Positions 1,416-29,825 of a DNA stretch of 32,000 bases are shown here, in pieces (the stretch's first letter is position 1; each line of letters begins with the position of its first letter). The position numbers and the translations under genes were made by a program. The notes beneath the pieces were generated by a model. It did not search any database and was not told the DNA's origin. It worked only from the letters and a program-made list of their open reading frames with translations. This DNA is from Geotalea daltonii FRC-32 (GTDB taxonomy: Bacteria; Desulfobacterota; Desulfuromonadia; Geobacterales; Geobacteraceae): NCBI RefSeq assembly GCF_000022265.1, contig NC_011979.1, forward strand, positions 1,500,001 through 1,532,000. The letters are read 5' to 3'.

Positions 1416-2354
1416 ATGAGTAAGATGATTGCCACCAGGGATGCATACGGTGAGGTTCTTGCGGAACTGGGCGAGGAAAATAAAGATATAGTTGCCCTGG
1501 ATGCTGATCTTTCCGGTTCGACAAAAACCGGGGTGTTTGCCAAGAAGTTTCCGGAGCGATTCTTCAATATGGGCATTGCCGAAGCGAACATGGTCGGAAC
1601 GGCAGCAGGCCTGGCTGCGGTGGGAAAAATTCCATTTCTTTCCACCTTTGCCATCTTTGCTGCCGGTCGTGGCTGGGAGCAGATTCGCCAGTCAGCCGCT
1701 TATCCGAAGGCCAATGTCAAGGTCGTTGCCACCCACGGCGGCGTTACGGTTGGTGAGGACGGCGGATCCCATCAGTCCATCGAGGACATCGCCATCATGC
1801 GTGCCATTCCCAATATGACAGTGGTAGTCCCTGCCGACGGAGTTGAGACCAAAGGGGCAATCCGGGCGGCAGCCGCTGCCAAAGGGCCTTTCTACATCAG
1901 GCTCGGCCGCAACAAGGTTCAGACCATTTTCCCTGAAGACCATGTTTTCCAGATCGGCAAAGGGAGTGAACTTGCCTCGGGCAGCGACATGACCTTCATC
2001 ACGACCGGCCTCATGACCGCCCAGGCGCTGGCCGCTGCTGAACAGCTGAAGAAAGAGGGAGTCTCCGCCCGTGTCGTCCACATTGGCACCGTAAAGCCAC
2101 TTGACCGGGAGATCGTTATCAAGGCTGCCCGGGAAACCGGTGCCATTGTCACCGCCGAAGAGCACTCCATCATCGGCGGACTGGGGGGAGCCGTTGCCGA
2201 ACTGCTGGCGGAGACCTGCCCGACACCGGTGAAGCGGGTAGGCATCAATGACCGTTTCGGCACCTCCGGCAAGGCGGAAGAACTGCTCAAATACTTCGGC
2301 CTTATGCCCGAAGATCTTGTGGAAGCAGCAAAGGAAGTACTCGCGAGGAAATAA
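1416..2354 (+). CDS. Transketolase, C-terminal (pyrimidine-binding plus C-terminal domain) subunit
   Basis: The ORF-track frame starts at 1311 inside the upstream gene. ATG 1416 is preceded by GAGGGG (1401-1406) and gives MSKMIATRDAYGE... Motifs FPERFFNMGIAEANMVGTAAGLA and THGGVTVGEDGGSHQ are typical of this subunit. Confidence 0.9.
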   Translation: MSKMIATRDAYGEVLAELGEENKDIVALDADLSGSTKTGVFAKKFPERFFNMGIAEANMVGTAAGLAAVGKIPFLSTFAIFAAGRGWEQIRQSAAYPKANVKVVATHGGVTVGEDGGSHQSIEDIAIMRAIPNMTVVVPADGVETKGAIRAAAAAKGPFYIRLGRNKVQTIFPEDHVFQIGKGSELASGSDMTFITTGLMTAQALAAAEQLKKEGVSARVVHIGTVKPLDREIVIKAARETGAIVTAEEHSIIGGLGGAVAELLAETCPTPVKRVGINDRFGTSGKAEELLKYFGLMPEDLVEAAKEVLARK

Positions 2355-2899
2355 TGTTCCTGCACCCGCTCAAATCTTCTGCCGGATTCACCTACCTTGC
2401 CGCCCTGATGATCGTCATCATCATGGGCATCATGCTGGGGGTGGCGGGGCAGTCGTGGAAGATGATCATGGACCGGGAGCGGGAAGCGGAGCTTTTGTGG
2501 GTGGGGACGCAATATCGGGAAGCCATGCTGCACTGGCGCAATTTTCGTCACGGCGAGGGGGCAATGCCCTTGGGTGATATCAAGCATCTAGCACAAGATC
2601 CTCGATCTCTACAGAATGTTAAGCATCTGCGCAAACTTTACCCTGATCCTATTACCGGAAAAGAGTGGAAAATAATAAAGGATCCCCAAAAGGGTATTCT
2701 TGGGATCGCCAGTTCCAGTGATAAGGAACCCATTAAGCAGGCTAATTTCCCTGCAGATTACACCCAGTTCGAAGGGAAAAAGAAATACAGTGAATGGGAG
2801 TTCCGGTGGGATGTCATCCCGCCTAAAAAGGCTGCAACAACGACTATCAGCGGCTTACAGACCTCCACATCACCGGTAAAAACATCACCAGGACCTTGA
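2354..2899 (+). CDS. Prepilin-type N-terminal domain protein (pseudopilin-like, GspG-like fold suspected)
   Basis: The N-terminus KSSAG/FTYLAALMIVIIMGIMLGV resembles a class III (prepilin peptidase) signal followed by a hydrophobic helix. Downstream, REAELLWVGTQYREAM and DPITGKEW resemble GspG-like pseudopilin motifs. ATG 2354 overlaps the transketolase stop codon (TAATG). Confidence 0.55.
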   Translation: MFLHPLKSSAGFTYLAALMIVIIMGIMLGVAGQSWKMIMDREREAELLWVGTQYREAMLHWRNFRHGEGAMPLGDIKHLAQDPRSLQNVKHLRKLYPDPITGKEWKIIKDPQKGILGIASSSDKEPIKQANFPADYTQFEGKKKYSEWEFRWDVIPPKKAATTTISGLQTSTSPVKTSPGP

Positions 2900-2933: not shown

Positions 2934-4439
2934 TTGATCTTTAAGAGCCTCACCACACGGGTAATAGTCATCTCCATCCTGCTGCTCGTCTTCGGCATCA
3001 GCACCTTTGCCTTCGTCACCCTGCGCCGTGAGCAGATGCAGCTGATCAATGCCGCCCGGGAAAGCAGCGAGCTTCTGCTCAACACCATAGAGCGCAGTAC
3101 CTACAATTCCATGCGCATCGGCAACACGGAAGATGTGCAGACCATCCTAGAGCTTGTAGGGCAGAACCAGAAACTGCTCTCCGTCCGCATATTTCATCCC
3201 CACGGCGTTGTCCTCAAATCCTCCCGGCCCAGCGAGGTCGGCAAGCCTGTTGACGACCGGGACTACCAGCTGTTCATCAACAACAGGAAAGACGGCGTTT
3301 TTTATCTGGAGGGTCACGGGGAAGTCCTGGGCATGTTGAAGCCCATCTATAACGATGAACCGTGCCACGTCTGCCATGGCCACAAGAGCCGGATCATCGG
3401 CCTGCTGAATGTCAATTATTCGCTTGTCGAGACCAGAAAGCGGATCATGGATGCCTCCAAGCTCTTTGTTTTTTCCACCATTGCCATCATATCCTTCCTC
3501 TCCCTTGCAATCTCCATGGTTATGGTGAAATTCGTCAAGAAGCCCCTCCATCTCCTGGCGGAAAACATGGCCAGGGTTGAGCAGGGTGATTTGTCGGTGC
3601 GGATGAAGCCCGATGGCAAGGATGAGATCGGCCGTCTCATAGTCAGTTTCGATTCCATGGTGGACCGACTCGATACTGCCAAGCAGGAGCTGGATCAATA
3701 TCATTTCCAGCAGATGGAGAGGGCAGACCGACTGGCTTCCGTCGGCGAAATGGCTGCAGGCATTGCCCACGAGATAAAAAACCCACTGACCGGCATTGCA
3801 GCAGCCATAACCATAATAAAAGAGGACTTCGCTCCCTCCGACTCACGCACCACCATTGTCGATGAGGTACTGGAGCAGATCAAGAGGCTCGACAAGACGG
3901 TTAACGACCTGTTGTTTTTCGGCAAGCCGGCGCAACCGGAGCCCGCCTTTACCGATATAAATTCAACCATACGGAAAACCCTCAAGTTCGCTTCCCAGCA
4001 TCGGGGAAGCAAAAATATCGAGAAAAAGCTGGAACTTCAGGAAGATCTGCCACCGGTGTATGTGGACCCGAAACAGATCCAGCAGGTTTTGCTCAACCTG
4101 ATTCTCAATGCCATGCAGGCAATGCATGACGGCGGAACACTGACCATAAGAAGTGCATTCGAGAAAAAAGAGCAGGACTGGGTTCTTATCATGGTCAAGG
4201 ATACCGGACAGGGGATTCCTGCCCAGATCCTGGAGAAGATCTTTACGCCGTTTTTTACGACAAAGGCACAGGGGACCGGCCTTGGTCTGGCCATCTGCCA
4301 TAAGCTCGTGTCGCAGCACAATGGAACCTTGACTGTTTCCAGCGAGGATGGCAAAGGAACCGAATTCATCGTAAGTTTACCGGCCCTCAGTCTGCAGTTT
4401 CCTGAAAATCAGGCTTTGGAGACCGCTGCAGCAATATAG
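2934..4439 (+). CDS. Sensor histidine kinase (2 TM, periplasmic loop with CxxCH, HAMP, HisKA, HATPase_c)
   Basis: TTG start 5 nt after AGGAG (2924-2928). TM1 at about aa 10-30 and TM2 at about aa 178-200. HAMP-like segment after TM2, H-box AHEIKNPL, N-box LNLILNAMQA, G1 DTGQGI, F-box FTPFFTTK, G2 GTGLGLAI. CHVCH at aa 144-148 lies in the periplasmic loop. Confidence 0.9.
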   Translation: MIFKSLTTRVIVISILLLVFGISTFAFVTLRREQMQLINAARESSELLLNTIERSTYNSMRIGNTEDVQTILELVGQNQKLLSVRIFHPHGVVLKSSRPSEVGKPVDDRDYQLFINNRKDGVFYLEGHGEVLGMLKPIYNDEPCHVCHGHKSRIIGLLNVNYSLVETRKRIMDASKLFVFSTIAIISFLSLAISMVMVKFVKKPLHLLAENMARVEQGDLSVRMKPDGKDEIGRLIVSFDSMVDRLDTAKQELDQYHFQQMERADRLASVGEMAAGIAHEIKNPLTGIAAAITIIKEDFAPSDSRTTIVDEVLEQIKRLDKTVNDLLFFGKPAQPEPAFTDINSTIRKTLKFASQHRGSKNIEKKLELQEDLPPVYVDPKQIQQVLLNLILNAMQAMHDGGTLTIRSAFEKKEQDWVLIMVKDTGQGIPAQILEKIFTPFFTTKAQGTGLGLAICHKLVSQHNGTLTVSSEDGKGTEFIVSLPALSLQFPENQALETAAAI

Positions 4440-4496: not shown

Positions 4497-5867
4497 TTGA
4501 GAAAGACAAGAATACTGGTGGTTGATGATGAGCACTTGATCCGTTGGTCACTGGAACAGAATCTGAAAAAGCAGGGTTATGAAGTCTTTACCGCCGGCAA
4601 TGGTGAAGATGCTCTTCGTCTGGTGCGTGAGGAGCAACCTGAGCTGGTACTGCTTGATATTCAACTGCCCGGCATTGGCGGACTTGAGGTTCTGGAAAAG
4701 GTCAAGGAATTCGATGACGAGATAGTAGTCATCATGCTCACGGCCCATGGCGGTCTGGAAACAGCCGTAAACACCATGCGTATGGGCGCCTACGATTATA
4801 TCAACAAGCCCTTTAACCTGGATGAGCTCTCCATTGTCATAAAGAAGGCGCTGGAAACTTCCGATCTGCGTCGCGAAGTAGTTCAGTTGAGAAGTGAGCA
4901 CAAAAAGCTGGGTCCCCCAAAGATTATCGGTACCAGCAAGCATATGAAAAATGTTTTGGACATGATGGGCAAGGTTGCCAAGAGTGAAGCATCCACCGTC
5001 CTCATTCAGGGTGAATCGGGTACCGGCAAGGAGCTGGTCGCAAAATGGATCCATTATCAGTCCAGCCGTGCAGAAAAACCCTTTGTCGCTATAAATTGTG
5101 CGGCCGTCCCGGCAACCCTTCTGGAGAGTGAGCTTTTCGGCCATGAAAAGGGGGCCTTTACCGATGCCAAAACCGCAAAAAAAGGGCTGTTTGAACTTGC
5201 CGATGGAGGGACCGTATTTCTCGATGAGATCGGCGATATGGAGATGGGGATGCAGGCAAAGCTCCTCAGATTCCTTGAGGACAGAACCTTCAGGCGCATC
5301 GGTGGCGCCAAGGTTATATCTGTCGATGTGCGGATTATTTCAGCGACCAACAAGGAGCTACTCAAGGCCATCGAAGAGAAGTCTTTCCGCAACGACCTCT
5401 ACTACCGGTTGCAAGTGATCCCTATTTTCCTTCCTGCTTTGAGGGAGAGGAGGGACGATATCATCCAACTTGCCAATTTCTTCATGGAATCCTTCGGCAG
5501 GGAATTCAACAAGTCGGTAAAATCCATCTCAAGCATGGCTGAAAAGATGCTCATTGATTATAGCTGGCCAGGCAATATCAGAGAACTTAAAAATGTTATT
5601 GAACGGGCTATCATCCTTGGGACCGAGGACACCCTGCTCATCGAAAATCTGCCGCTTGAGATAATTGCGAAAAGTTCCGCATCCACAGTGCCAGTTTCTA
5701 CGTTCAAACTGCCACCAGAAGGGGTTGATATCGAAGAGGTAGAAAAAGAACTCATAAGGCAATCGCTGGAGATAACCGATTGGAATCAATCAAAGGCCGC
5801 CAAAAAACTTAACCTGGGCATAGATGCTTTCAGGTACCGCATGAAGAAATTTGGTTTTTTAAAATAA
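4497..5867 (+). CDS. Sigma-54-dependent response regulator (REC, AAA+ sigma-54 interaction domain, Fis-type HTH; NtrC family)
   Basis: TTG start after AAGGGGA. REC domain with VVDDE and LLDIQLPG (phospho-Asp). Walker A GESGTGKE, ESELFGHEKGAFTDA (GAFTGA-loop variant), Walker B VFLDEIGD, RIISATN. C-terminal HTH is NQSKAAKKLNLGIDAFRYRMKK. Confidence 0.92.
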   Translation: MRKTRILVVDDEHLIRWSLEQNLKKQGYEVFTAGNGEDALRLVREEQPELVLLDIQLPGIGGLEVLEKVKEFDDEIVVIMLTAHGGLETAVNTMRMGAYDYINKPFNLDELSIVIKKALETSDLRREVVQLRSEHKKLGPPKIIGTSKHMKNVLDMMGKVAKSEASTVLIQGESGTGKELVAKWIHYQSSRAEKPFVAINCAAVPATLLESELFGHEKGAFTDAKTAKKGLFELADGGTVFLDEIGDMEMGMQAKLLRFLEDRTFRRIGGAKVISVDVRIISATNKELLKAIEEKSFRNDLYYRLQVIPIFLPALRERRDDIIQLANFFMESFGREFNKSVKSISSMAEKMLIDYSWPGNIRELKNVIERAIILGTEDTLLIENLPLEIIAKSSASTVPVSTFKLPPEGVDIEEVEKELIRQSLEITDWNQSKAAKKLNLGIDAFRYRMKKFGFLK

Positions 5868-5958
5868 AATTTTCAACTCTGCCTATTTCCGTGAATTGTG
5901 ACAAACATAATAATAATGCCTCTTTACATTGAATTTCAGTTTTTGTTCCCTCCCCAAT

Positions 5959-5986
5959 GGGGCTTTGCTTCACAAAGAAAAGCCCC
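5959..5986 (+). promoter_or_regulatory. Inverted repeat, candidate upstream activator site (or RNA hairpin)
   Basis: GGGGCTTT (5959-5966) and AAAGCCCC (5979-5986) are exact reverse complements separated by 12 nt. The repeat lies about 105-130 bp upstream of the -24/-12 element at 6090-6105, the usual distance for enhancer-binding-protein sites. No T-run follows, so it is a poor terminator. Confidence 0.3.
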
Positions 5987-6089
5987 ACACATAACTATCT
6001 AAATCCTCAAGATATTTTTCTTTAAGTCTCTCAAGGGTCATGTCTGCACCACCGACTATTTAATCGGAAGATAAAATAATCATTGATGC

Positions 6090-6105
6090 GGGCATCGAAG
6101 TTGCA
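6090..6105 (+). promoter_or_regulatory. Sigma-54 (-24/-12) promoter for the NHL/cytochrome unit
   Basis: GGGCATCGAAGTTGCA compared with consensus TGGCACGNNNNTTGCW: GG at 6091-6092 and GC at 6103-6104 with exact consensus spacing, and TTGCA is perfect. Located 84 nt upstream of ATG 6189. Confidence 0.55.
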
Positions 6106-6188
6106 TTAATAGCAGCCTAGTAACCCTGCAATCAGACTAGATTCTTAATTTATATTAGAATATCTCCAATAATTACGGAGGCTTTCAG

Positions 6189-9035
6189 ATGATTCACGCA
6201 AAGCGCAACCTTACAACATTGCTTGTCGTCTCGCTGCTTGTCGCAGTCATTTCACTGCCGGGAACAATTTCTTTGGCGGCAGCGGTGGCCCCTGTGGCCA
6301 AGGCCATGCCTCCTGTCAGGGATGGGATGATGACGCCTGCGAGGATCGTTGTCGAATCTTCCGGCAACAATTACTATGTCACTGACCCTAGGGCCGGGGC
6401 TGTTTTGAAGTACAATCTTTATGGCCATCTGGTGCAGACCATAAAAACAACTGGTATTCCTCTTGGTATTGCCTTCGCGGGTAGTGATCTGCTGGTTACC
6501 TGCGGTAACTATGTTTCCGTTGTCAATCCCGGTACCGGCGCCGAGATCAGGCGTATTGGCGAACCAGGGGTTATCGCTAAAGCGACTGGTGTCGCTGTCG
6601 ATAGCCTTGGCTCCACATACGTTGCTGATGCTGCAAAGCATCAGGTTCACGTCTTTGCTGCTTCCGGTGTGTATGTGCGCTCGTTTGGCGGCCTGGGCAA
6701 GGCGGCCGGCTTTTTTCAGTATCCAGCTGGCCTTGCATACGACAAAGACCTCAACCGACTTGCTGTTGCAGACTCTATGAACGGCAGGGTTCAGCTTTTC
6801 GATGTGAATCCTTCTAGCCCCACTTATCTAACCAATGTGAAAACTATTGGCCTTGGTACCTTGCGTGATCAGCCTTTGGATTTTGTTGCTCCCCAAGGCG
6901 TCAGCTTTGAATATGATAAAGCTGGAAAGTTGAAAAGGATGTATGTGGTTGATACCTGGAAAAGCGGAATTCAGGTCATCGATCCACTGGACGGGGTGAA
7001 TGGTAGATATCTGTCTCTCGTTGGAGCTGGCGCAATCTCTGCTGGCTCCTATATCTACGGTATGCTGAATGGGGTTCAGGATTGGCAATTCCTGCTTCCC
7101 TCGGATGCTGCATTTGATCCAGTCTATAGCAGGCTTCTGGTACCTTCGGCCAACAGCAGTATTCAGATTATCGGTATTGACGGCGGCATGACCCCCTCTG
7201 ACAATAACCCGATCTATCTCAATATTGATGCATCCCCACTGAACACGAATTCTCCGAACTATGCAATTAGTGGAACGGTTAAACCTGGCTCTCAAATCAA
7301 GATAACGACAAATACCGGTGCCATTGCCGGTCTGGTCGAGCCGGTAGGTCAGGTTTGGAATGCTACCATCACCGGTTTGGCGTTGGGTGTCAATAAGATC
7401 ACTGTCCTGGCAACCGATGTAACGGGCAAAGAGTTGTCCAAAGAGATAAGTGTTCTGTACACCCTCAATGCTCCGTCACTTACCGTAACAACGGCCACTG
7501 GTACAGTGGTCAACGGTCTTTCTACGGCTTTGTCCGGCACCGTGGACGCCGATTGCACGGTAAATATAATAAATAATACTACGGGAATTACAAGCACGGC
7601 GGTTGTGACAGGAACATCGTGGAATGGAACGGTAACCCTTTCCAATAACGCCGCCAACAATTTCACGGTAACGGCAAGTAAACCCGGTAGCAACACTGCC
7701 TCTACAAGTGTGACGATTATAAGTGATACGACTGCACCTTCTCTGAATATATCCGCTCTTCCCGATAACAGCTACAGCAGTGGCACAATGACTCAGAATA
7801 TTTCGGGATACGTGCAGGATGCAAATCCCTCTACCGTATCGGTTTCTGTGAATGGTGGTGCTGCGGCCATTTATTCGACACCGTTGCCCGCAGCCTCCTT
7901 CAGCGCTTCGGTCACTCTTCAGCAGGGTGCCAATACCATAACCGTTCAAGCGACTGACCTTGCGGGTAATACGTCTTTCGTCAACACCAGGACGATCAGC
8001 TACCAGCCGACCAGGCCTGTATTGACCCTGGGTGCTGCAACCCCTGCCGATAACTCCTTTACAAATTCAGCTACTGTCTCCGTCAGCGGTACGGTAACAC
8101 CTGTCAATTCTGTCGTTACCATCACCAATAACGGCGTGGCTGTCGCCGGGGTCACTAACGATGCCGCCGGCAATTGGTCGGCGCCAGTCACGGGCCTGCC
8201 TCTGGTGAACGGTCAAAACGTCATAGTGATTAGTGCAAATGCCGGTGCTGGTGATGCCAGTCTGAAGCGTACTGTCACCCTTGATACAACCGTGCCTGGT
8301 CTGGCAATTACATCGCCTGCAGCGGACATTTCCATCAATGATCCCAGTATTGAAATAGCCGGTACGGTTTCGGCTGACGCAGGCGGTTACCCGACATTGA
8401 CCGCCATGGTAAATTCAACTCCGGTCACCCCGACCTTGACCAATGGAACTTTTGTCTTGTACCCGGGTGCTTATCTTGCCGAAGGTCCTAACACCATCAC
8501 GGTGACTGCGACTGATTCAGCTAACAATCCCCCTGTTATCCAGGTGCGCAATATCAATTACGACATAACGCCGCCTGCTCTTACTCTTGGTTCAACATAT
8601 GCCGGTTACCCCAAGACCATAAGCGGTACAGTTGAAAGCCAAGCCAGTATCACCGTTAAAGATGGAGCTACGTCCTTCCCCGTAGTCGTTACTGCTGGCC
8701 AGTGGACTGCCAATCTGTCTTCGGCAAGTTACAGCAGGGATACCCTCCAGATTAAAGCAACTGATGCCGCAGGCAATATAAGTGTGATTACGGGTCTGAG
8801 TTCTTCCTATACCAAACCCTCCGGCGACTTAAATGCTGATAGTCTTGTCAATACGGTAGATGTGCAACTGGCGCTGGATTTTGCTTACGGGCGCAAGGTG
8901 CCTACACAGGAACAGCTATTGCAAGGCGATATCGGACCACTTCTGAATGGGTTTGCTAATCCAAACGGCGTCATAGATTTGTCGGATGCAATCCTTATTC
9001 GCAAAAAAGCAGTTGATAGCACTTTTACCTGGTAA
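6189..9035 (+). CDS. Secreted NHL-repeat beta-propeller protein with an array of Ig-like domains and a C-terminal dockerin-like module
   Basis: RBS ACGGAGG before ATG 6189. Signal peptide ...SLAAAVAPVAKA. NHL-type repeats (YVTDPRAGAVLKYN, GVAVDSLGSTYVADAAKHQVHVF, PAGLAYDKDLNRLAVADSMNGRVQLFD). About 6-7 Ig-like modules of roughly 90 aa share the recurring pattern ISGTV...G.N.ITV.ATD.AGN. The C-terminus has EF-hand-like loops DLNADSLVNTVD and NPNGVIDLSD. Confidence 0.85.
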   Translation: MIHAKRNLTTLLVVSLLVAVISLPGTISLAAAVAPVAKAMPPVRDGMMTPARIVVESSGNNYYVTDPRAGAVLKYNLYGHLVQTIKTTGIPLGIAFAGSDLLVTCGNYVSVVNPGTGAEIRRIGEPGVIAKATGVAVDSLGSTYVADAAKHQVHVFAASGVYVRSFGGLGKAAGFFQYPAGLAYDKDLNRLAVADSMNGRVQLFDVNPSSPTYLTNVKTIGLGTLRDQPLDFVAPQGVSFEYDKAGKLKRMYVVDTWKSGIQVIDPLDGVNGRYLSLVGAGAISAGSYIYGMLNGVQDWQFLLPSDAAFDPVYSRLLVPSANSSIQIIGIDGGMTPSDNNPIYLNIDASPLNTNSPNYAISGTVKPGSQIKITTNTGAIAGLVEPVGQVWNATITGLALGVNKITVLATDVTGKELSKEISVLYTLNAPSLTVTTATGTVVNGLSTALSGTVDADCTVNIINNTTGITSTAVVTGTSWNGTVTLSNNAANNFTVTASKPGSNTASTSVTIISDTTAPSLNISALPDNSYSSGTMTQNISGYVQDANPSTVSVSVNGGAAAIYSTPLPAASFSASVTLQQGANTITVQATDLAGNTSFVNTRTISYQPTRPVLTLGAATPADNSFTNSATVSVSGTVTPVNSVVTITNNGVAVAGVTNDAAGNWSAPVTGLPLVNGQNVIVISANAGAGDASLKRTVTLDTTVPGLAITSPAADISINDPSIEIAGTVSADAGGYPTLTAMVNSTPVTPTLTNGTFVLYPGAYLAEGPNTITVTATDSANNPPVIQVRNINYDITPPALTLGSTYAGYPKTISGTVESQASITVKDGATSFPVVVTAGQWTANLSSASYSRDTLQIKATDAAGNISVITGLSSSYTKPSGDLNADSLVNTVDVQLALDFAYGRKVPTQEQLLQGDIGPLLNGFANPNGVIDLSDAILIRKKAVDSTFTW

Positions 9036-9089
9036 CCTCGGACACGGTAATCAGAAACTACGTATATAAATGCTTTCAGGAGCGTAAAC

Positions 9090-12000
9090 ATGAATGGACC
9101 AATTAAAAATGCTCTGCTGACACTGATCTTGGTCACAATTGTGACAATAACAGCGCAGGCGCAATACTTGCCACCTTCGCATGATTTCGGCCAACAGAGT
9201 TGCGGTGCCTGTCATGCGACTGGTACTGATATTACCAATGCTGCTAATAATAATGTCTGTATGATATGTCACAAGGTCGGTAGTGCTTCTACCACGAACA
9301 AGCAGTTCTTTGTGGGAGATATGGCCAATCCATTTGGGACGACTATCGAAAGCAACGAGAATGGCAGTTATTCACACAGTTCTCACGAGTGGTCTGCAAC
9401 CGACGATAACCCGGCAGCAGGGGCTCTACCACCTGTTAATCCTGTCATGAATACCATTAATTCCTACAACGGTAGCTTGAGTTGTAACCGTTGCCATGGA
9501 ATACACGCGCCATCACCGCTTCCTCACCTGCTCAGGCAGTCCATGAACAACGATGAGCTCTGTCTCGATTGTCATCGTCTTAGGAACACAAACTCTCACA
9601 TATACGGCTCACATCCTGTAAACATGGACTACAACGCCGTTGCTTCAAGCAAACCCACTAAATATGCAGCTTCGCCGGTTAATAGTAACCCTGCCAACCC
9701 AACATCCGATATGAAATTGGCTAACGGCAAAGTCGTATGTACAACTTGTCACAATGCTCACTTCACCGACTCCAGCAGCAAGACCCTTGATAACTTTTCA
9801 ACGGCAATGGTAAACGGGCTTGCCCCCTCCAAAGGTTACTTGCTGCGGACAGATTACCGGTACGTGAACTATACTACGCTGGACAGCCCCAATATCTGTA
9901 CCAACTGCCACACAAGTAAGCATGAACATAATGGCGGCAACCAGAGGGTGCGTTGTACTGACTGTCACAGTGGCCACGTGGATTACGATCCCTTCGCAAC
10001 TGACCCCGCGACAATGGTACCAAACGTTTATATGGTCAAACGTTATATGAACTGGTCATCGGCCACGGGCTGGAAGGATAACAAGAAGCTAACCACGCCC
10101 AAGCAGACGCTGTTCCAGGATGCATCTGCCCAGAGACTCTACAAAAGGGCGGATGGCAAGGGTGTCTGCCAGAGTTGTCATGAGGTGCCACCTTGGAAAG
10201 CAATTGCTCCGAGTGGCAATCCTTACCCAGAGGCACATGATATTGTCAATGCCGTTGCAGCTGATTGTAATCGCTGCCACAGCCACGACAGCCGGTGGAG
10301 TTTCGCCGCCTCCTGTTTAGAATGCCATGGTCAACCGCCCACCGCCACCACTGCCGCAGCCGGTTATCAAGGCAATGAAGCTGTTTCAGCCCATACCAAG
10401 CATTCCAACAATTACAGCTTCAAGTGTCTTGAGTGTCACTATGACGGTGCCTCTCTCGCACTGCATGACAAAGGCAATTACCAGGATGTCTACCACCGTC
10501 CCGACTATGTAGACGCCGATGCTGTGGCCTCAAAGTTTGGATCTCTCCCTTCCTACAGTACAAGCGCCAATAAATGTTCTACCGTTTACTGCCACAGTAA
10601 TGGCGCACCCAAGCTTGCATTCAAAACCTACTCAATAGCATACAAAACGACGCCCAATTGGTTTGGCGAGCAAACAACATGTAATTCCTGTCATGAGGCA
10701 GCACCGACAACAAATGCCCATGGCGCCCACCTTGCTAAAAATTATACCTGCCAAAACTGCCATGCCGCCACTGCCAGCGGTTCAGGTGCAATAATCGACA
10801 AAACTAAACATGCCGACGGCAATAAACAGCTGGAGTTTGCATCAGTGGGGCTGTCCTTTGCCCTTAATGGAAACTCCTGCTCGACGATATACTGCCACAG
10901 TGATGGGTCTGGTAATTATTCCGCCCCCACTTGGACTGATTCGTCAACCGGCCAGTGCGGAACCTGCCACGGCACAACCGACAGAACCAGCGGTGCCCAT
11001 CAGGCGCACCTGTCTCAGACAACACTCTATGGGCCAAAACTCACACAATTCGACACAGTGGTTGCCTGTAACAAATGTCATGGCCCCGACTACACAACCA
11101 AGCATCTTAACGGTACGACAGTAGATGTCAGCTCCTCAACCTGTTCGGCCTCATGCCATGCCAACGGCATCGGCTCTGCCTCCTGGGTAACCGGAAGAAC
11201 CGGCATTACCTGTGAAAGCTGTCATACGGGCACCCTGTCCAATGTGAACGGTGCGACTGCACCCGATAAGTCTTTCGCAGCCAGCCGGGGCCATAACATG
11301 AACTCCAGCAGCACCGGCGTCATCATGAACTACAACTGTACCTCGTGCCATGATGCTAATGCCAAGCACATCGACCCTGCTGCTCACGACACCAGGTTGT
11401 TGCCGGCCTACACGGGTGCACTTAACAATGAGTGTAACGCTTGTCACAACACCGCAACGGTGCCTACGGAGAGCAAAAAGGACATGCTCACGCACGTTAT
11501 TGATCTTGTAGGCACTCCGAGTGCTTGTAACGTCTGCCATGATCCCCATGGTTCTGCTAACCGGAACATGATTAGGGCGAAAATTGTGGCGCGTGATGGT
11601 TTTAACAATATAACCTGCAACATTTCTTACAAGAACAGCACTTCGTTGGTCTCAACAGTTAAGGTTGGTAACCTGTATACGGGCCTTTGCCAGGTCTGCC
11701 ATACTTCGACCAAGTTCTACAAAAACAACACTGAGGAAACCAATCATTACTCGACCGGTTGTTTCGACTGCCACAAACATAAGGCTGCTGATAAGACCTA
11801 TGCATTCGAGCCTGGCGGTGGTGGTTGCAATGGTTGTCATGGCTACCCACCTGTTCAGACAATGCAGGCGAATTACGGTACTCTTGGTAATTACTCAGGT
11901 GCTCGTCTTCAAAACTACTCCGGTGGTGGCGGCGCCCACGATGTGCCTGGTCACATTGCTGCCAACTCTCGTCCTTCACAAGGCTGGACAAACTGTCTCA

Positions 12001-12215
12001 CTTGCCATTACGGGTCAAGCCAGCACATGAAGGGTGACTATACAAAACCATCCACCATTAATGTCACCGTTGATCCGAAATACAAATTCGATTCCAAACT
12101 GCCGATTACTTACTCCGGCAACCAGAATAATGATCGCAGCCTCTACCAATCCGGTACATGCTCCAATGTCAGCTGCCACTTCCAGGCGTCACCGAAGTGG
12201 AGTAGCGAAAAGTAA
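9090..12215 (+). CDS. Multiheme c-type cytochrome, about 27 heme-binding motifs
   Basis: RBS CAGGAG (9078-9083). Signal peptide ending TAQA/QY. My by-eye count is 23 CxxCH, 3 CxxxxCH (CSTVYCH, CSTIYCH, CSNVSCH) and 1 CxxxCH (CSASCH). The C-terminal two thirds resemble the Geobacter CxxxxCH...CxxCH domain family (TIGR01904, from memory). The 54-nt gap to the upstream gene suggests co-transcription. Confidence 0.9.
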   Translation: MNGPIKNALLTLILVTIVTITAQAQYLPPSHDFGQQSCGACHATGTDITNAANNNVCMICHKVGSASTTNKQFFVGDMANPFGTTIESNENGSYSHSSHEWSATDDNPAAGALPPVNPVMNTINSYNGSLSCNRCHGIHAPSPLPHLLRQSMNNDELCLDCHRLRNTNSHIYGSHPVNMDYNAVASSKPTKYAASPVNSNPANPTSDMKLANGKVVCTTCHNAHFTDSSSKTLDNFSTAMVNGLAPSKGYLLRTDYRYVNYTTLDSPNICTNCHTSKHEHNGGNQRVRCTDCHSGHVDYDPFATDPATMVPNVYMVKRYMNWSSATGWKDNKKLTTPKQTLFQDASAQRLYKRADGKGVCQSCHEVPPWKAIAPSGNPYPEAHDIVNAVAADCNRCHSHDSRWSFAASCLECHGQPPTATTAAAGYQGNEAVSAHTKHSNNYSFKCLECHYDGASLALHDKGNYQDVYHRPDYVDADAVASKFGSLPSYSTSANKCSTVYCHSNGAPKLAFKTYSIAYKTTPNWFGEQTTCNSCHEAAPTTNAHGAHLAKNYTCQNCHAATASGSGAIIDKTKHADGNKQLEFASVGLSFALNGNSCSTIYCHSDGSGNYSAPTWTDSSTGQCGTCHGTTDRTSGAHQAHLSQTTLYGPKLTQFDTVVACNKCHGPDYTTKHLNGTTVDVSSSTCSASCHANGIGSASWVTGRTGITCESCHTGTLSNVNGATAPDKSFAASRGHNMNSSSTGVIMNYNCTSCHDANAKHIDPAAHDTRLLPAYTGALNNECNACHNTATVPTESKKDMLTHVIDLVGTPSACNVCHDPHGSANRNMIRAKIVARDGFNNITCNISYKNSTSLVSTVKVGNLYTGLCQVCHTSTKFYKNNTEETNHYSTGCFDCHKHKAADKTYAFEPGGGGCNGCHGYPPVQTMQANYGTLGNYSGARLQNYSGGGGAHDVPGHIAANSRPSQGWTNCLTCHYGSSQHMKGDYTKPSTINVTVDPKYKFDSKLPITYSGNQNNDRSLYQSGTCSNVSCHFQASPKWSSEK

Positions 12216-12262
12216 TTGTGACGTTTTGCCAGAGTTAATTGGATAGATAAATATTATGTCAA

Positions 12263-12284
12263 AGGGAGGGTTCCCACCCTCCCT
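12263..12284 (+). other. GC-rich hairpin between the two cytochrome genes
   Basis: AGGGAGGGT (12263-12271), loop TCCC, ACCCTCCCT (12276-12284): a perfect 9-bp stem. It is followed by ATTGAGG with no T-run, so it is not a canonical terminator. It may be a partial attenuator or an mRNA-stability element. Confidence 0.35.
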
Positions 12285-12341
12285 ATTGAGGATGTCAGTA
12301 TGAGATTACAATCGTTTTCAGTTATATTTAAGGAGTCAAGT

Positions 12342-15300
12342 ATGAAGACATGTCACAGCGCAGGATACTTCAAACAACTGATTCTATTCTTGCTGTTGTC
12401 CTTAATGACTGTATTTGTCTTTACGGGGAATGCGCTGGCACTGACTGGCAACAAAATTGACAGTTGTTCAGACTGTCATGGCGAACGGCTAACCGGTGAC
12501 GTCAGACCTGTAGACTGGGGTTATAGAAACATAAGCACCGGTGGTGTTGTGGGAAACCACAGGACCCATATGGCCAATGGTGCATCGGTGGCAAGTTGTG
12601 ATACCTGCCATGTGAAGAATACTACTTTTGGCCACCGTGACGGCAAGATCAGCTTTCGGGCAGATATAAACGCTTCACCGGCGACTACCACCTATCTTAA
12701 AGCCGGAGTGCTTGGTTTTGTTAACCAGACCTCCAATCCGGTCATGACCAATGCAAACTGCTCCAATGTTAACTGCCACTTTGAAACAACCTCTCCAAGT
12801 TGGGGCCTGACTGCAGCGGCAGCCGGCCTTAATTGTGAGTCATGCCATAACTCTGCAAATACATCCTCCGCTCACACCAAACATAAAGAAAAATACGGCA
12901 GTTTAGGTTCCAACTACCTTGATTCTTGTTCTACATGCCATCCCAATAGAAGCACTTTTTCGCATGCAACGAGCGCAAACAATGCTGGTCGTAACATAGC
13001 CATTACAGTTAGCAGCTATGCTGGATCAAATTTTAAATATCTTCCAAGTGAAGCCGCCAGCCGTGTTCTAGGTTCCTGTAATAACCTTTACTGCCACAGT
13101 TCAGGGCAGTCTGCAACCGGTGGTTCAACTCCAGTTTACGCAACACCCAATTGGGGGGATACTGCCTCTGGTGCCTGCGGAAGCTGCCATGCAACAACAA
13201 CCCTGGCTTCCGGCAGCCACACCAAGCACTTCAGCGGCATTTCCCCGAATACGAACTGCGGCAATTGCCACGCCGGTGCAACCAGCACCAGCTATGCATC
13301 AACGCTGCATGTTGATACCTTCATCAACGTAACCGGTGCCTATACACAGGGCAAGTCCCATGCGCCCGGCAACGGTTATGGTGCATGTAATGCCGCAAGC
13401 TGTCATGACAACGGCAAAGGCGTACCGGCAGCGACCCCGACATGGGGTAACTCAACAGTACCTGCATGTACCGCCTGTCATACGCTGATCCCCGCTGACA
13501 ACAGCCATAACAAGCACGTAACCACCACCACATACAAGAAAGCAGCCTGCGGTGACTGTCACACCGGCTATGTTCAGGGGGCAACCGCAGCAGCAAATCA
13601 CCTGAATACAACAATCGAAGTCAACACCGGCGGCTATCCGTCACCGAAAGCAAAAAACAGTACAGTAGGAAGCTGTGCCACCTCCTACTGCCACAGCTCC
13701 GGCCAGTCATTAACCGGTGACGCAGCACCAGTCTACGGCACAGCACCGACCTGGGGTCAGTCAGTAGCCTGCGGAAGCTGCCATGCAACAACAACCCTGG
13801 CTTCCGGCAGCCACACCAAGCACTTCAGCGGCATTTCCCCGAATACGAACTGCGGCAACTGTCACGCCGGTGCAACCAGCACCAGCTATGCATCAACGCT
13901 GCATGTTGATACCTTCATCAACGTAACCGGTGCCTATACACAGGGCAAGTCCCATGCGCCCGGCAACGGTTATGGTGCATGTAATGCCGCAAGCTGTCAT
14001 GACAACGGCAAAGGCGTACCGGCAGCGACCCCGACATGGGGTAACTCAACAGTACCTGCATGTACCGCCTGTCATACGCTGATCCCCGCTGACAACAGCC
14101 ATAACAAGCACGTAACCACCACCACATACAAGAAAGCAGCCTGCGGTGACTGTCACACCGGCTATGTTCAGGGGGCAACCGCAGCAGCAAATCACCTGAA
14201 TACAACAATCGAAGTCAACACCGGCGGCTATCCGTCACCGAAAGCAAAAAACAGTACAGTAGGAAGCTGTGCCACCTCCTACTGCCACAGCTCCGGCCAG
14301 TCATTAACCGGTGGCGCAGCACCAGTCTACGGCACAGCACCGACCTGGGGTCAGTCAGTAGCCTGCGGAAGCTGCCATGCAACAACAACCCTGGCTTCCG
14401 GCAGCCACACCAAGCACTTCAGCGGCATTTCCCCGAATACGAACTGCGGCAACTGCCACGCCGGTGCAACCAGCACCAGCTATGCATCAACGCTGCATGT
14501 TGATACCTTCATCAACGTAACCGGTGCCTATACACAGGGCAAGTCCCATGCGCCCGGCAACGGTTATGGTGCATGTAATGCCGCAAGCTGTCATGACAAC
14601 GGCAAAGGCGTACCGGCAGCGACCCCGACATGGGGTAACTCAACAGTACCTGCATGTACCGCCTGTCATACGCTGATCCCCGCTGATAACAGCCATAACA
14701 AGCACGTAACCACCACCACATACAAGAAAGCAGCCTGCGGTGACTGTCACACCGGCTATGTTCAGGGGGCAACCGCAGCAGCAAATCACCTGAATACAAC
14801 AATCGAAGTCAACACCGGCGGCTATCCGTCACCGAAAGCAAAAAACAGTACAGTAGGAAGCTGTGCCACCTCCTACTGCCACAGCTCCGGCCAGTCATTA
14901 ACCGGTGGCGCAGCACCAGTCTACGGCACAGCACCGACCTGGGGTCAGTCAGTAGCCTGCGGAAGCTGCCATGCAACAACAACCCTGGCTTCCGGCAGCC
15001 ACACCAAGCACTTCAGCGGCATTTCCCCGAATACGAACTGCGGCAACTGTCACGCCGGTGCAACCAGCACCAGCTATGCATCAACGCTGCATGTTGATAC
15101 CTTCATCAACGTAACCGGTGCCTATACACAGGGCAAGTCCCATGCGCCCGGCAACGGTTATGGTGCATGTAATGCCGCAAGCTGTCATGACAACGGCAAA
15201 GGCGTACCGGCAGCGACCCCGACATGGGGTAACTCAACAGTACCTGCATGTACCGCCTGTCATACGCTGATCCCCGCTGACAACAGCCATAACAAGCACG

Positions 15301-17120
15301 TAACCACCACCACATACAAGAAAGCAGCCTGCGGTGACTGTCACACCGGCTATGTTCAGGGGGCAACCGCAGCAGCAAATCACCTGAATACAACAATCGA
15401 AGTCAACACCGGCGGCTATCCGTCACCGAAAGCAAAAAACAGTACAGTAGGAAGCTGTGCCACCTCCTACTGCCACAGCTCCGGCCAGTCATTAACCGGT
15501 GGCGCAGCACCAGTCTACGGCACAGCACCGACCTGGGGTCAGTCAGTAGCCTGCGGAAGCTGCCATGCAACAACAACCCTGGCTTCCGGCAGCCACACCA
15601 AGCACTTCAGCGGCATTTCCCCGAATACGAACTGCGGCAACTGCCACGCCGGTGCAACCAGCACCAGCTATGCATCAACGCTGCATGTTGATACCTTCAT
15701 CAACGTAACCGGTGCCTATACACAGGGCAAGTCCCATGCGCCCGGCAACGGTTATGGTGCATGTAATGCCGCAAGCTGTCATGACAACGGCAAAGGCGTA
15801 CCGGCAGCGACCCCGACATGGGGTAACTCAACAGTACCTGCATGTACCGCCTGTCATACGCTGATCCCCGCTGATAACAGCCATAACAAGCACGTAACCA
15901 CCACCACATACAAGAAAGCAGCCTGCGGTGACTGTCACACCGGCTATGTTCAGGGGGCAACCGCAGCAGCAAATCACCTGAATACAACAATCGAAGTCAA
16001 CACCGGCGGCTATCTCTCCCCTAAAGCCAAGAACAGCCTGGTTAGCAGTTGTACTACTTCCAGCTGCCACTCAAATGGAAAAGGCAGCTCTCAATCAGTT
16101 ACCTGGGGACAGGCTTCACTTAACTGTAAGTCCTGCCATCCAGCCTTGGGTGGCGCACATTCCCGCCACATGGGTGGTTTCGACGGTGTCAACGCCATGG
16201 ATTGGGCCAACCTGCCCTTCTACCAGTATACCTCCACCAAATCCACTGGTGCTGACAGTGGTACGCCTGCCAACTATGCATTCGGCTGCGCCAACTGTCA
16301 CCCAATTACTTCTTTGAGCCATGTCAATGGCACCATTGATGTCACACTCGATACCACCGGCAACGTTAGTTCGCTGCGTGCGAAAAATGCTTCGGCAGGT
16401 TTCGCCGGCACAACGGTAGGTACTAATACTCTCAAGTGCCAGAACGTATACTGTCACAGTGACGGTAAGGGTGGGCAAACCACCACTTTGGCCTGGAATC
16501 AGACCTCAACTGCCTCCGAACGCTGCGCCAAGTGCCATGGCAATTCACCAGCTGATGCCACACATCAGGCTCATGTAAGTGGCGGAATTCATGCTGACAA
16601 TGTCTTCAACGGCACAAGCGGATTACTTTCTGCCGGCTCCACAGGGTCCGTGAGCCATGGCATCGCCGGCCAGCAAACGACAATCAACTGTAACATCTGT
16701 CACAGTGGAACAGTTACCTCTGCACGCAACGCTGCAAATAGTGCCTGTGTCTCCTGCCACGGCGGAGATGCATCGCCTGTCTACGGCTCCATTGCCGACC
16801 TGAGCAACCACGTCAACGGCAATGTCAATGTTTCCTTTGCCGATACGACCATCTACTCCAAGGCACAGTTGAGGCCTACCAGCTTCGCCGGATATACCAG
16901 CGGTACCGCAGGTTGGGTTCGCAACGGCGACAACTACAAAAATGGTGCAGCAGCCTTTGACTACTCTAAAAACAAGCTGGCTGCCCAGGCAACCTGGACC
17001 GCAGGTCCTGCTGGGCAAAGCTCCTGTTCCAACGTCGTTTGTCATAACATGAAAGCAGGCCAGCCAGCTGTAAAATGGAGTGATACCCTCTCCTGCGATA
17101 GCTGCCACACTAGCCTGTAA
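12342..17120 (+). CDS. Giant multiheme c-type cytochrome (1592 aa, about 44 heme-binding motifs) with internal tandem repeats
   Basis: The ORF-track frame opens at 12300. ATG 12342 sits 6 nt after AAGGAG (12330-12335) and gives a signal peptide MKTCHSAGYFKQLILFLLLSLMTVFVFTGNALA. My by-eye count is 30 CxxCH and 14 CxxxxCH. The protein is built from modules of about 99 aa: CxxxxCH, about 22-25 aa, CxxCH, a short [SA]HxxH segment, CxxCH. Confidence 0.9.
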   Translation: MKTCHSAGYFKQLILFLLLSLMTVFVFTGNALALTGNKIDSCSDCHGERLTGDVRPVDWGYRNISTGGVVGNHRTHMANGASVASCDTCHVKNTTFGHRDGKISFRADINASPATTTYLKAGVLGFVNQTSNPVMTNANCSNVNCHFETTSPSWGLTAAAAGLNCESCHNSANTSSAHTKHKEKYGSLGSNYLDSCSTCHPNRSTFSHATSANNAGRNIAITVSSYAGSNFKYLPSEAASRVLGSCNNLYCHSSGQSATGGSTPVYATPNWGDTASGACGSCHATTTLASGSHTKHFSGISPNTNCGNCHAGATSTSYASTLHVDTFINVTGAYTQGKSHAPGNGYGACNAASCHDNGKGVPAATPTWGNSTVPACTACHTLIPADNSHNKHVTTTTYKKAACGDCHTGYVQGATAAANHLNTTIEVNTGGYPSPKAKNSTVGSCATSYCHSSGQSLTGDAAPVYGTAPTWGQSVACGSCHATTTLASGSHTKHFSGISPNTNCGNCHAGATSTSYASTLHVDTFINVTGAYTQGKSHAPGNGYGACNAASCHDNGKGVPAATPTWGNSTVPACTACHTLIPADNSHNKHVTTTTYKKAACGDCHTGYVQGATAAANHLNTTIEVNTGGYPSPKAKNSTVGSCATSYCHSSGQSLTGGAAPVYGTAPTWGQSVACGSCHATTTLASGSHTKHFSGISPNTNCGNCHAGATSTSYASTLHVDTFINVTGAYTQGKSHAPGNGYGACNAASCHDNGKGVPAATPTWGNSTVPACTACHTLIPADNSHNKHVTTTTYKKAACGDCHTGYVQGATAAANHLNTTIEVNTGGYPSPKAKNSTVGSCATSYCHSSGQSLTGGAAPVYGTAPTWGQSVACGSCHATTTLASGSHTKHFSGISPNTNCGNCHAGATSTSYASTLHVDTFINVTGAYTQGKSHAPGNGYGACNAASCHDNGKGVPAATPTWGNSTVPACTACHTLIPADNSHNKHVTTTTYKKAACGDCHTGYVQGATAAANHLNTTIEVNTGGYPSPKAKNSTVGSCATSYCHSSGQSLTGGAAPVYGTAPTWGQSVACGSCHATTTLASGSHTKHFSGISPNTNCGNCHAGATSTSYASTLHVDTFINVTGAYTQGKSHAPGNGYGACNAASCHDNGKGVPAATPTWGNSTVPACTACHTLIPADNSHNKHVTTTTYKKAACGDCHTGYVQGATAAANHLNTTIEVNTGGYLSPKAKNSLVSSCTTSSCHSNGKGSSQSVTWGQASLNCKSCHPALGGAHSRHMGGFDGVNAMDWANLPFYQYTSTKSTGADSGTPANYAFGCANCHPITSLSHVNGTIDVTLDTTGNVSSLRAKNASAGFAGTTVGTNTLKCQNVYCHSDGKGGQTTTLAWNQTSTASERCAKCHGNSPADATHQAHVSGGIHADNVFNGTSGLLSAGSTGSVSHGIAGQQTTINCNICHSGTVTSARNAANSACVSCHGGDASPVYGSIADLSNHVNGNVNVSFADTTIYSKAQLRPTSFAGYTSGTAGWVRNGDNYKNGAAAFDYSKNKLAAQATWTAGPAGQSSCSNVVCHNMKAGQPAVKWSDTLSCDSCHTSL
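13173..16015 (+). repeat. 594-bp in-frame tandem repeat, about 4.8 copies, near-identical at nucleotide level
   Basis: The string gcctgcggaagctgccatgc recurs at 13173, 13767, 14361, 14955 and 15549 (period 594). Five near-identical antisense ORFs at 594-bp spacing in the ORF track confirm it. The repeat decays at about 16015, where ggctatccgtca becomes ggctatctctcc. Confidence 0.95.
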
Positions 17121-27011: not shown

Positions 27012-27046
27012 AGATACCTCTGAGTAGGAAAAATACACAGGTGGGT

Positions 27047-29069: not shown

Positions 29070-29825
29070 TTAGAGAGCAAAAGACATGCCATCATATGCA
29101 AATTCCACGCCGCTGGGCAGTTTTGCCCCGTCAGAGTAAGAAACTTCATGGGTAAGATGGGTAAGGATAGCATGCTCAGGTCGGAGGTCTTCCACCACCT
29201 TCAGTGCTCCTTCAATATTGTAATGGTTGGGATGGGGTGTGTAGCGAAGAGCATCGAGTATCAGCAACCTGAGACCGGCAAGTTTTGCCCGTGAGGTGTC
29301 GGCTATGGAGCTGCAGTCGGTCAGGTAGGCCACATCGTCAAAACGATAACCGGTGGTCGGCATGTGGCCATGCATGAGTGGAATGGGTTCCACCCGGCAG
29401 CCGAACAAGTCCATGGGGCCGCTGATGATATTCTGCTCCATGAGCGGTGCATAGCCGGCGGCTTCCATGCCCTTGAAGATATATGAGAAATTTCTGGCGA
29501 TGACCTTCATGGATTCTTCGCTTCCATAGCAGGGTATGATCCTTTTATGGATAAAATGGAAGCCGCGAAGATCATCAATGCCGTGGATGTGATCGGCGTG
29601 GGAGTGGGTGAAGAGTACGGCGTCGATATGGGGAATATGCTCTCTGATTACCTGCTTTCTCAGATCGGTGGAGGTGTCGACAAGAATGTATTTGCCATTG
29701 TTTTCTATGATGATCGAAGCGCGGGTCCGTTTGTCCCGGCGATCACCTGAGGAACAGACGGGGCAATGGCAGCCGACCATGGGCACGCCAGTGGAGGTGC
29801 CGGAGCCGAGAATCGTTAATTTCAT
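29070..29825 (-). CDS. MBL-fold metallo-hydrolase, PhnP-like
   Basis: The ORF-track frame extends to 30026. ATG 29825 (MKLTILGSGTSTGVP) with an upstream AAGGGA is the family-typical start. It has the GCHCPVC cysteine cluster and the THSHADHIHG metal motif. No phn genes are nearby. Confidence 0.8.
   Translation of the reverse strand: MKLTILGSGTSTGVPMVGCHCPVCSSGDRRDKRTRASIIIENNGKYILVDTSTDLRKQVIREHIPHIDAVLFTHSHADHIHGIDDLRGFHFIHKRIIPCYGSEESMKVIARNFSYIFKGMEAAGYAPLMEQNIISGPMDLFGCRVEPIPLMHGHMPTTGYRFDDVAYLTDCSSIADTSRAKLAGLRLLILDALRYTPHPNHYNIEGALKVVEDLRPEHAILTHLTHEVSYSDGAKLPSGVEFAYDGMSFAL

Follow-up and report, generated by a model that had tools for sequence, protein, structure and literature searches.

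Gene structure and membrane topology of the kinase

The DNA analyzed in the current work is a window of 32,000 nucleotides (nt) from Geotalea daltonii FRC-32 (contig NC_011979.1, positions 1,500,001 to 1,532,000 of the forward strand), and all coordinates given below are counted from its first letter. The window contains a gene for a sensor histidine kinase of 501 amino acids (aa), followed by a response regulator gene and by a putative operon encoding giant multiheme cytochromes. We are highly confident that the loop between the two transmembrane segments (TM1 and TM2) of the kinase is a c-heme sensor domain of the known PF21563 / sCache_heme family. The features of the kinase gene are as follows.

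2934..4439, + strand: sensor histidine kinase, 501 aa, with TM1, predicted periplasmic heme-c sensor, TM2, HAMP, HisKA and HATPase_c (translation, Pfam)
2958..3023, + strand: TM1 (about aa 9-30), hydropathy peak with averaging windows centred on aa 10-22
3024..3467, + strand: periplasmic sensor domain (aa 31-178), PAS-like/sCache fold of the PF21563 / sCache_heme type (profile, AlphaFold2 model, Foldseek)
3111..3113, + strand: codon of Met60, predicted distal (sixth) heme ligand, aligned with Met60 of GSU0935
3363..3377, + strand: CHVCH (aa 144-148), with Cys144 and Cys147 (predicted thioether bonds) and His148 (predicted proximal heme ligand)
3462..3533, + strand: TM2 (about aa 177-200), then Lys-rich VKFVKKP and HAMP (hydropathy; Pfam HAMP)
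3768..3770, + strand: His279 in the H-box AHEIKNPL, inside HisKA 271-332 and invariant in orthologues; from knowledge of the family we take it to be the phospho-acceptor

The kinase starts with TTG, with AGGAG 7 nt upstream, and its orthologues share both the N-terminus MIFKSLTTRVI and the start position. Hydropathy analysis (Kyte-Doolittle, 19-aa window) displayed two hydrophobic segments and no more (about aa 9-30 and about aa 177-200), close to those of the original prediction, in which the loop had been proposed as a covalent-heme redox sensor from inspection of the DNA. Pfam matches were found for HAMP (aa 197-247, 9.3e-14), HisKA (271-332, 5.3e-15) and HATPase_c (378-484, 4e-30). A histidine kinase core requires cytoplasmic ATP. 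For this reason, and because HAMP comes directly after TM2, the predicted topology must place aa 31-178 in the periplasm; the periplasmic loop of the original prediction, which had itself named topology as one of the checks to be made, is therefore retained.

Conservation of the heme motif and the distal methionine

Three cysteines occur in the kinase, at aa 144, 147 and 455. The two in the loop both belong to CHVCH (context IYNDEPCHVCHGHKSRIIGLLNV), and the translation reads exactly as had been claimed. By our own estimate, chance would produce only about 1e-4 to 3e-4 CxxCH motifs in a loop of 148 aa. In a set of 16 orthologues (68-98% identity), C144, C147, H148 and M60 are all invariant. 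More distant relatives were collected by an exhaustive search of 1.84 billion cluster representatives, in which 304 were found at E<=0.001. The best 150 of these 304, which represent clusters at 50% identity, were examined, and the counts cover the sequences aligned at the site in question. Among them, position 144 is Cys in 135/135, position 147 in 134/135, and position 148 is His in 134/135. A heme motif is kept in 133 of the 134 relatives that cover the site, including 111 with CxxCH and 22 with CX3-4CH, which is a heme motif too; one relative has no motif. The conservation of CxxCH, which the original prediction had named as a test of its reading, can thus be observed in both sets.

The same pattern holds for the sixth ligand position. 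The comparison is with GSU0935 and GSU0582, the chemoreceptor heme sensors of Geobacter whose domains are found in the structures 3B42 and 3B47, respectively. In the profile alignment, Met60 of the kinase falls on Met60 of GSU0935 (residue 26 of the chain, whose numbers are lower by 34 than those of the protein, chain His110 corresponding to His144), and CHVCH is in register with CQSCH of 3B42 and 3B47. Met60 of GSU0935 is the distal heme ligand (PMC8396549). Position 60 is Met in 142 of 146 of the relatives examined.

A CxxCH motif may also exist without heme, either as a CxxC thiol-disulfide switch or as a Cys/His metal site in an ordinary Cache ligand-binding domain. CxxC motifs are capable of both roles, and the site is rich in histidines within the orthogroup (H88, H90, H145, H148, H150). 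However, the entire domain is homologous to two domains that carry covalent heme c at the aligned motif (PMC8396549). In distant relatives, both Cys, the His of CxxCH and the distal Met are conserved as a set, the variants there being CX3-4CH heme motifs, and the organism makes many c-type cytochromes. We therefore judge a motif without heme to be very improbable and return to covalent attachment as the preferred reading. The genome of this strain contains ResB-type (System II) cytochrome c maturation genes and about seven domains of this sensor kind.

The histidines near the motif are a feature of the orthogroup. FHPHG and the His-rich CH(x)CHGH, at aa 88-90 and 145-150 (3195-3203 and 3366-3383), are invariant in it; across the wider sensor family, the same positions are variable and mostly D, N or S. 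This orthogroup-specific cluster (FHPHG, CHxCHGH) might tune the potential of the heme or add a second, metal-dependent input.

Homology and fold of the sensor domain

PF21563 (Mcp40H-20_sensor), for which the chemoreceptor heme sensors of Geobacter served as the core, is the sole sensor-type Pfam match of the kinase, and the same label is found in the precomputed annotation of many of its orthologues. An alignment of the sensor domain was assembled from 39 members, comprising orthologous loci and short metagenomic relatives (22-50% identity). PF21563 was matched by 36 of the 39 members, with a best value of 5.3e-10, and PF11845 was touched by 5. When the single sequence of the domain was searched against PDB sequences, 3B42 appeared at E=1.2 only. 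The link became significant only when the family profile was used instead of the single sequence: the profile matched 3B42 (GSU0935) with E=2.9e-12 and 3B47 (GSU0582) with E=5.1e-9, the matches spanning about 125 residues. Its match to Tll0287 (5B82) was weak (E=0.0048).

The AlphaFold2 model of the sensor domain, a monomer built from the 39-member alignment, has a pLDDT of 92.5 and a pTM of 0.85. It consists of helices at 2-31 and 35-45 and a five-strand sheet, with CxxCH on a short helix (domain residues 112-118). In a Foldseek search of the PDB with this model, 3B42 ranked first (E=7e-7); the next hits were also sensor domains of the single-Cache type, those of WalK, CitA and DcuS. The root-mean-square deviation between the model and 3B42 is 13.8 Å despite the best E-value, which we interpret as the value to be expected if a modelled closed monomer is superposed on a domain-swapped crystal chain.

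All sequence and structure features of the PF21563/sCache_heme family that could be checked are present in the kinase domain. The Geobacter chemoreceptors had been cited in the original prediction as sensors of a comparable kind. Given the PF21563 match, the profile match to 3B42 and 3B47, the first place of 3B42 in Foldseek and the aligned Met60, this tie is real homology and not mere analogy.

The partner regulator, a conserved promoter and the putative target operon

The kinase gene is followed on the same strand by the gene of a response regulator and by a group of large genes.

4497..5867, + strand: response regulator with REC, sigma-54 AAA+ domain and HTH_8 (NtrC/AtoC type), GAFTDA loop (Pfam)
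6090..6105, + strand: sigma-54 type -24/-12 promoter GGGCAT-N5-TTGCA, 84 nt upstream of the NHL gene start (consensus scan)
6189..17120, + strand: putative target operon (Pfam, motif counts, synteny)
6189-9035, + strand: NHL/Ig-repeat protein (Pfam)
9090-12215, + strand: multiheme cytochrome with 23 CxxCH, and CX3-4CH motifs too (motif count)
12300-17120, + strand: larger multiheme cytochrome with 30 CxxCH, and CX3-4CH motifs too (motif count)

The regulator was matched by Sigma54_activat (4.8e-72), Response_reg (2.5e-31) and HTH_8 (2.9e-12), and in every related locus that extends far enough, it is located directly after the kinase. In NCBIfam, the best similarities were to AtoS/ZraS for the kinase and to AtoC/NtrC for the regulator, with no score reaching the equivalog cut-offs. 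Genes for an NHL/Ig-repeat protein and for a large multiheme cytochrome come next after the regulator in 24 loci. All 24 of these cluster-bearing loci contain a -24/-12 element (GGCAY-N5-(G)TTGCA) about 100 nt before the NHL start codon. Both the pairing of the kinase with a sigma-54 activator and the adjacent sigma-54-driven cytochrome unit, which the original prediction had described, are supported in this way.

In an alignment of twelve intergenic regions, the -24/-12 element is one of only two conserved islands, and the rest has diverged. A scan of the window for TGGCAC-N5-TTGC with at most one mismatch gave 4 sites where 3.8 were expected, none of them before the NHL gene, and the candidate at 6090-6105 has 2 mismatches to the consensus. 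Because near-consensus matches are no commoner in the window than chance would give, the promoter was accepted on account of its conservation across loci.

The second conserved island before the NHL gene, at 6160-6191, reads ATCTCCAATAA-N-CGGAGGCTTTCA-ATG, in which TCTCC is able to pair with the Shine-Dalgarno sequence GGAGG. This leader is invariant across loci, though the NHL proteins are only 23-40% identical. Its hairpin is present in the minimum-energy fold; the stability is no better than that of shuffled sequence (z = -0.41), and the invariance of both arms leaves no room for covariation. The leader may be a translational control element.

Further elements were observed around the regulator gene. 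A hairpin-like sequence, GGGGCTTT...AAAGCCCC (at about 5950-5986, in the region 5940-5990), was considered as an activator-binding palindrome and rejected, being common to close relatives only and not family-wide; it could be a terminator of the kinase-regulator operon or a binding site. One related locus (L002) contains a different, perfect 13-bp hairpin at the same place after the regulator gene. Four loci (L031-L033 and L036), those of Geomobilimonas luticola and Geobacter sp. AOG1 among them, have about 1.5 kb of additional DNA that separates the NHL gene from the regulator, at about 10876-12350 in locus coordinates; it has a -24/-12 element of its own right after the regulator, and a second stands before the NHL gene.

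A proposed signalling chain

The chemistry of the homologous sensors has been described. GSU0582 and GSU0935 contain covalent heme c with His as the proximal ligand. In the oxidised state Met is released and the heme is high-spin; in the reduced state Met60 is bound and the heme is low-spin. The midpoint potentials of GSU0582 and GSU0935 are -156 and -251 mV. Nitric oxide (NO) and carbon monoxide (CO) bind reversibly and displace Met, NO in both redox states and CO when the heme is reduced (PMC8396549). Because all sequence features that carry this chemistry are kept in the kinase, a His148/Met60 ligand switch is the likeliest mechanism.

The periplasmic single-Cache (PAS-like) domain would bind one c-type heme covalently, with Cys144 and Cys147 making the thioether bonds, His148 acting as proximal ligand and Met60 as an exchangeable distal ligand located on the helical continuation of TM1. 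A change of periplasmic redox poise, or a diatomic gas (NO/CO), would then cause the His148/Met60 ligand switch, and the N-terminal helices would move. The signal may be relayed by the TM1-linked helices, and then by TM2 and HAMP, as far as the HisKA/HATPase core and so set the phosphorylation level of the adjacent NtrC-type regulator. The regulator, in turn, would activate the sigma-54 promoter at 6090-6105 and with it the NHL-repeat protein and the two giant multiheme cytochromes. This whole chain, from c-heme sensor to kinase, regulator and cytochrome operon, seems to us reasonably probable; within it, we infer heme attachment, the nature and sign of the signal, and the regulon.

The heme might instead receive a diatomic gas, chiefly NO, as its physiological signal. 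The kinase would then belong to a nitrosative-stress or NO pathway, and its cytochrome neighbours would be secondary. Pseudomonas members of sCache_heme bind NO and have been proposed as NO sensors (PMC12889525), and the gas binding of GSU0582 and GSU0935, to NO in either redox state and to CO on reduction, points the same way (PMC8396549). However, the His/Met ligands and the pairing with a sigma-54-driven multiheme operon in 24 loci fit redox tuning at least equally, and no NO-detoxification gene was found among the Pfam-annotated neighbours. Gas sensing as the main function, in place of redox potential, is unlikely in our estimation. A further reading can be offered only tentatively: the kinase would be the periplasmic redox gauge of Geobacteraceae, with a heme that is poised by the cytochrome pool of the periplasm, and by way of a sigma-54 activator with an unusual GAFTDA loop it would switch on an extracellular module of NHL scaffold and giant multiheme cytochromes. 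If this is true, the locus provides direct feedback from the electron-transfer chain to its own hardware.

Distribution, neighbouring genes and the extent of the regulon

Of the 87 genomes of the family, 57 contain an orthologue of the kinase, as a single copy, and 16 of the 18 genera are represented. Synteny was followed in 41 Geobacteraceae loci, and the gene order tktN-tktC (split transketolase)-orf181-kinase-regulator is kept in nearly all of them. One further gene of this group lies next to the kinase.

2354..2899, + strand: conserved pseudopilin-like gene of 181 aa, directly upstream of the kinase (N-terminus SSAG/FTYLAALMIVII)

This gene overlaps the stop of the transketolase C-terminal subunit gene and, in 40 of the 41 loci, occupies the place after the split transketolase genes and before the kinase (35-79% identity). 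The protein has Ala, not Glu, at +5 (N-terminus SSAG/FTYLAAL...), and a Pfam search with it gave no match. It could be a periplasmic accessory of the sensor.

A second sigma-54 unit was detected on the minus strand of the window. Its near-consensus promoter, TGGCATGTCTTTTGCT, lies at 29076-29091, just upstream of an open reading frame of 615 aa (27151-28998; no Pfam family). Downstream of this frame lies a GAF-domain sigma-54 activator (24201-27038, minus strand) with the loop GAFTGA.

Several observations weigh against the chain proposed above. On this kinase sequence alone, PF21563 scores 20.4 bits for the whole protein and 22.7 for the domain, where the cut-off is 27. The sigma-54 contact loop of the regulator is GAFTDA (5151-5168, aa 219-224) instead of the canonical GAFTGA; the 33 regulator orthologues seen all read GAFTDA or GSFTDA. 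Upstream of the promoter, no activator-binding site proved to be conserved, either in the intergenic alignment or as the palindrome sought after the regulator gene. In 11 loci (Geomonas, Citrifermentans and relatives), the kinase-regulator pair is kept without an adjacent NHL-cytochrome cluster. NHL homologues were found elsewhere in 3 of 4 such genomes searched, in another context, two of them followed by a cytochrome homologue. The idea that the operon had merely moved with its promoter in the Geomonas type was rejected, the full-length NHL homologues found elsewhere having no -24/-12 element or leader. Since 11 loci have no cluster and the NHL homologues found in the genomes searched have no such promoter, the cytochrome operon is not the sole or universal target.

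The same distribution bears on another explanation, in which a heme-c sensor controls a regulon elsewhere, such as the co-transcribed transketolase/pseudopilin genes or distant sigma-54 promoters, and the NHL-cytochrome cluster is an insertion with its own promoter and another activator. The transketolase-to-regulator order persists in almost all 41 loci and the cluster is missing from 11, where the genes next to the regulator are instead DUF362 and the 244-aa gene, which in the window border the cluster; moreover, the window holds the second activator at 24201-27038. Where the cluster is present, however, it begins directly after the regulator with the conserved -24/-12 element, and the second activator has a good minus-strand promoter of its own, at about 29091. 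The usual targets of sigma-54 activators are promoters close by. A regulon that lies wholly elsewhere thus appears distinctly unlikely, and control of the adjacent cytochrome operon is the reading that we retain for the lineages in which the cluster is found.

Comparison with known systems

In Geobacter-type organisms, the choice among many multiheme cytochromes according to acceptor potential is largely unexplained, and only for a few regulators, BccR among them, has a link to a cytochrome operon been made. The locus described here offers a compact, conserved and testable circuit, in which a heme-c sensor kinase is combined with a sigma-54 activator, a conserved promoter and an NHL/cytochrome operon. 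The periplasmic c-heme reading is supported but not new, in that heme-c sensor domains fused to histidine kinases have already been described. What the current work adds is, first, proof that the domains are homologous, down to the distal Met; second, a survey of orthologues across Geobacteraceae; and third, a conserved promoter that ties the kinase-regulator pair to the NHL/multiheme-cytochrome operon in most, not all, lineages. Because the sensor class was already described, the value lies in the annotation and in a concrete regulon hypothesis, with no new principle.

The closest structural comparison is with the sensors of GSU0935 and GSU0582 (3B42, 3B47; PF21563). The location of the domain between two TM helices, the position of CxxCH, Met60 and the fold are alike. 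The identity to the crystallised domains is only about 18-19%, and the kinase orthogroup has invariant histidines of its own in FHPHG and CH(V/I/T)CHGH. The output also differs: in the chemoreceptors it is an MCP domain and motility, whereas here HAMP and a histidine kinase lead to a sigma-54 activator and gene expression.

A 2026 preprint has united the DUF3365/Tll0287-like PF11845 with GSU0582/GSU0935 in the sCache_heme family, which includes NO-binding Cache domains. Its members are fused to kinases, MCPs and GGDEF/EAL enzymes, and HAMP-HisKA-HATPase_c is among the listed architectures (PMC12889525). The kinase shares with this family the extracytoplasmic Cache fold, the inserted helix with a strictly conserved CXXCH, and the HAMP-HisKA-HATPase_c fusion (PMC12889525). 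Within sCache_heme, its domain is far nearer to the PF21563 branch than to Tll0287. The sixth heme ligand of Tll0287 is Cys, whereas Met is conserved at this position in the kinase.

Eight two-component proteins of G. sulfurreducens with heme motifs have been listed: GSU0283, GSU0303, GSU0356, GSU0599, GSU1302, GSU2314, GSU2816 and GSU2916 (PMC8396549, citing Londer 2006). These likewise have one periplasmic CxxCH, so that the class is already recognised, and the present kinase is very probably an orthologue of one of them. GSU2916/GSU2915 presumably lie beside split transketolase genes and the omcO/omcP cytochromes. No functional study of the heme-motif kinases came up when the literature was searched by their GSU numbers. 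Related heme-motif sensor domains have also been noted in Anaeromyxobacter (PMC3831638).

Finally, a precedent in G. sulfurreducens is BccR (GSU0598), a response regulator of the sigma-54 type by which the cbcBA cytochrome operon is induced when the redox potential falls (bioRxiv 10.1101/2021.04.15.440034). Its neighbour GSU0599 appears in the above list of heme-motif two-component proteins (PMC8396549). Orthology with BccR is not claimed. The two systems differ in their targets and arrangement: there, the operon encodes an inner-membrane bc cytochrome and is divergent; here, the NHL protein and giant multiheme cytochromes follow in tandem. Both are, nevertheless, NtrC-type regulators that adjoin a Geobacter cytochrome operon with a -24/-12 promoter.

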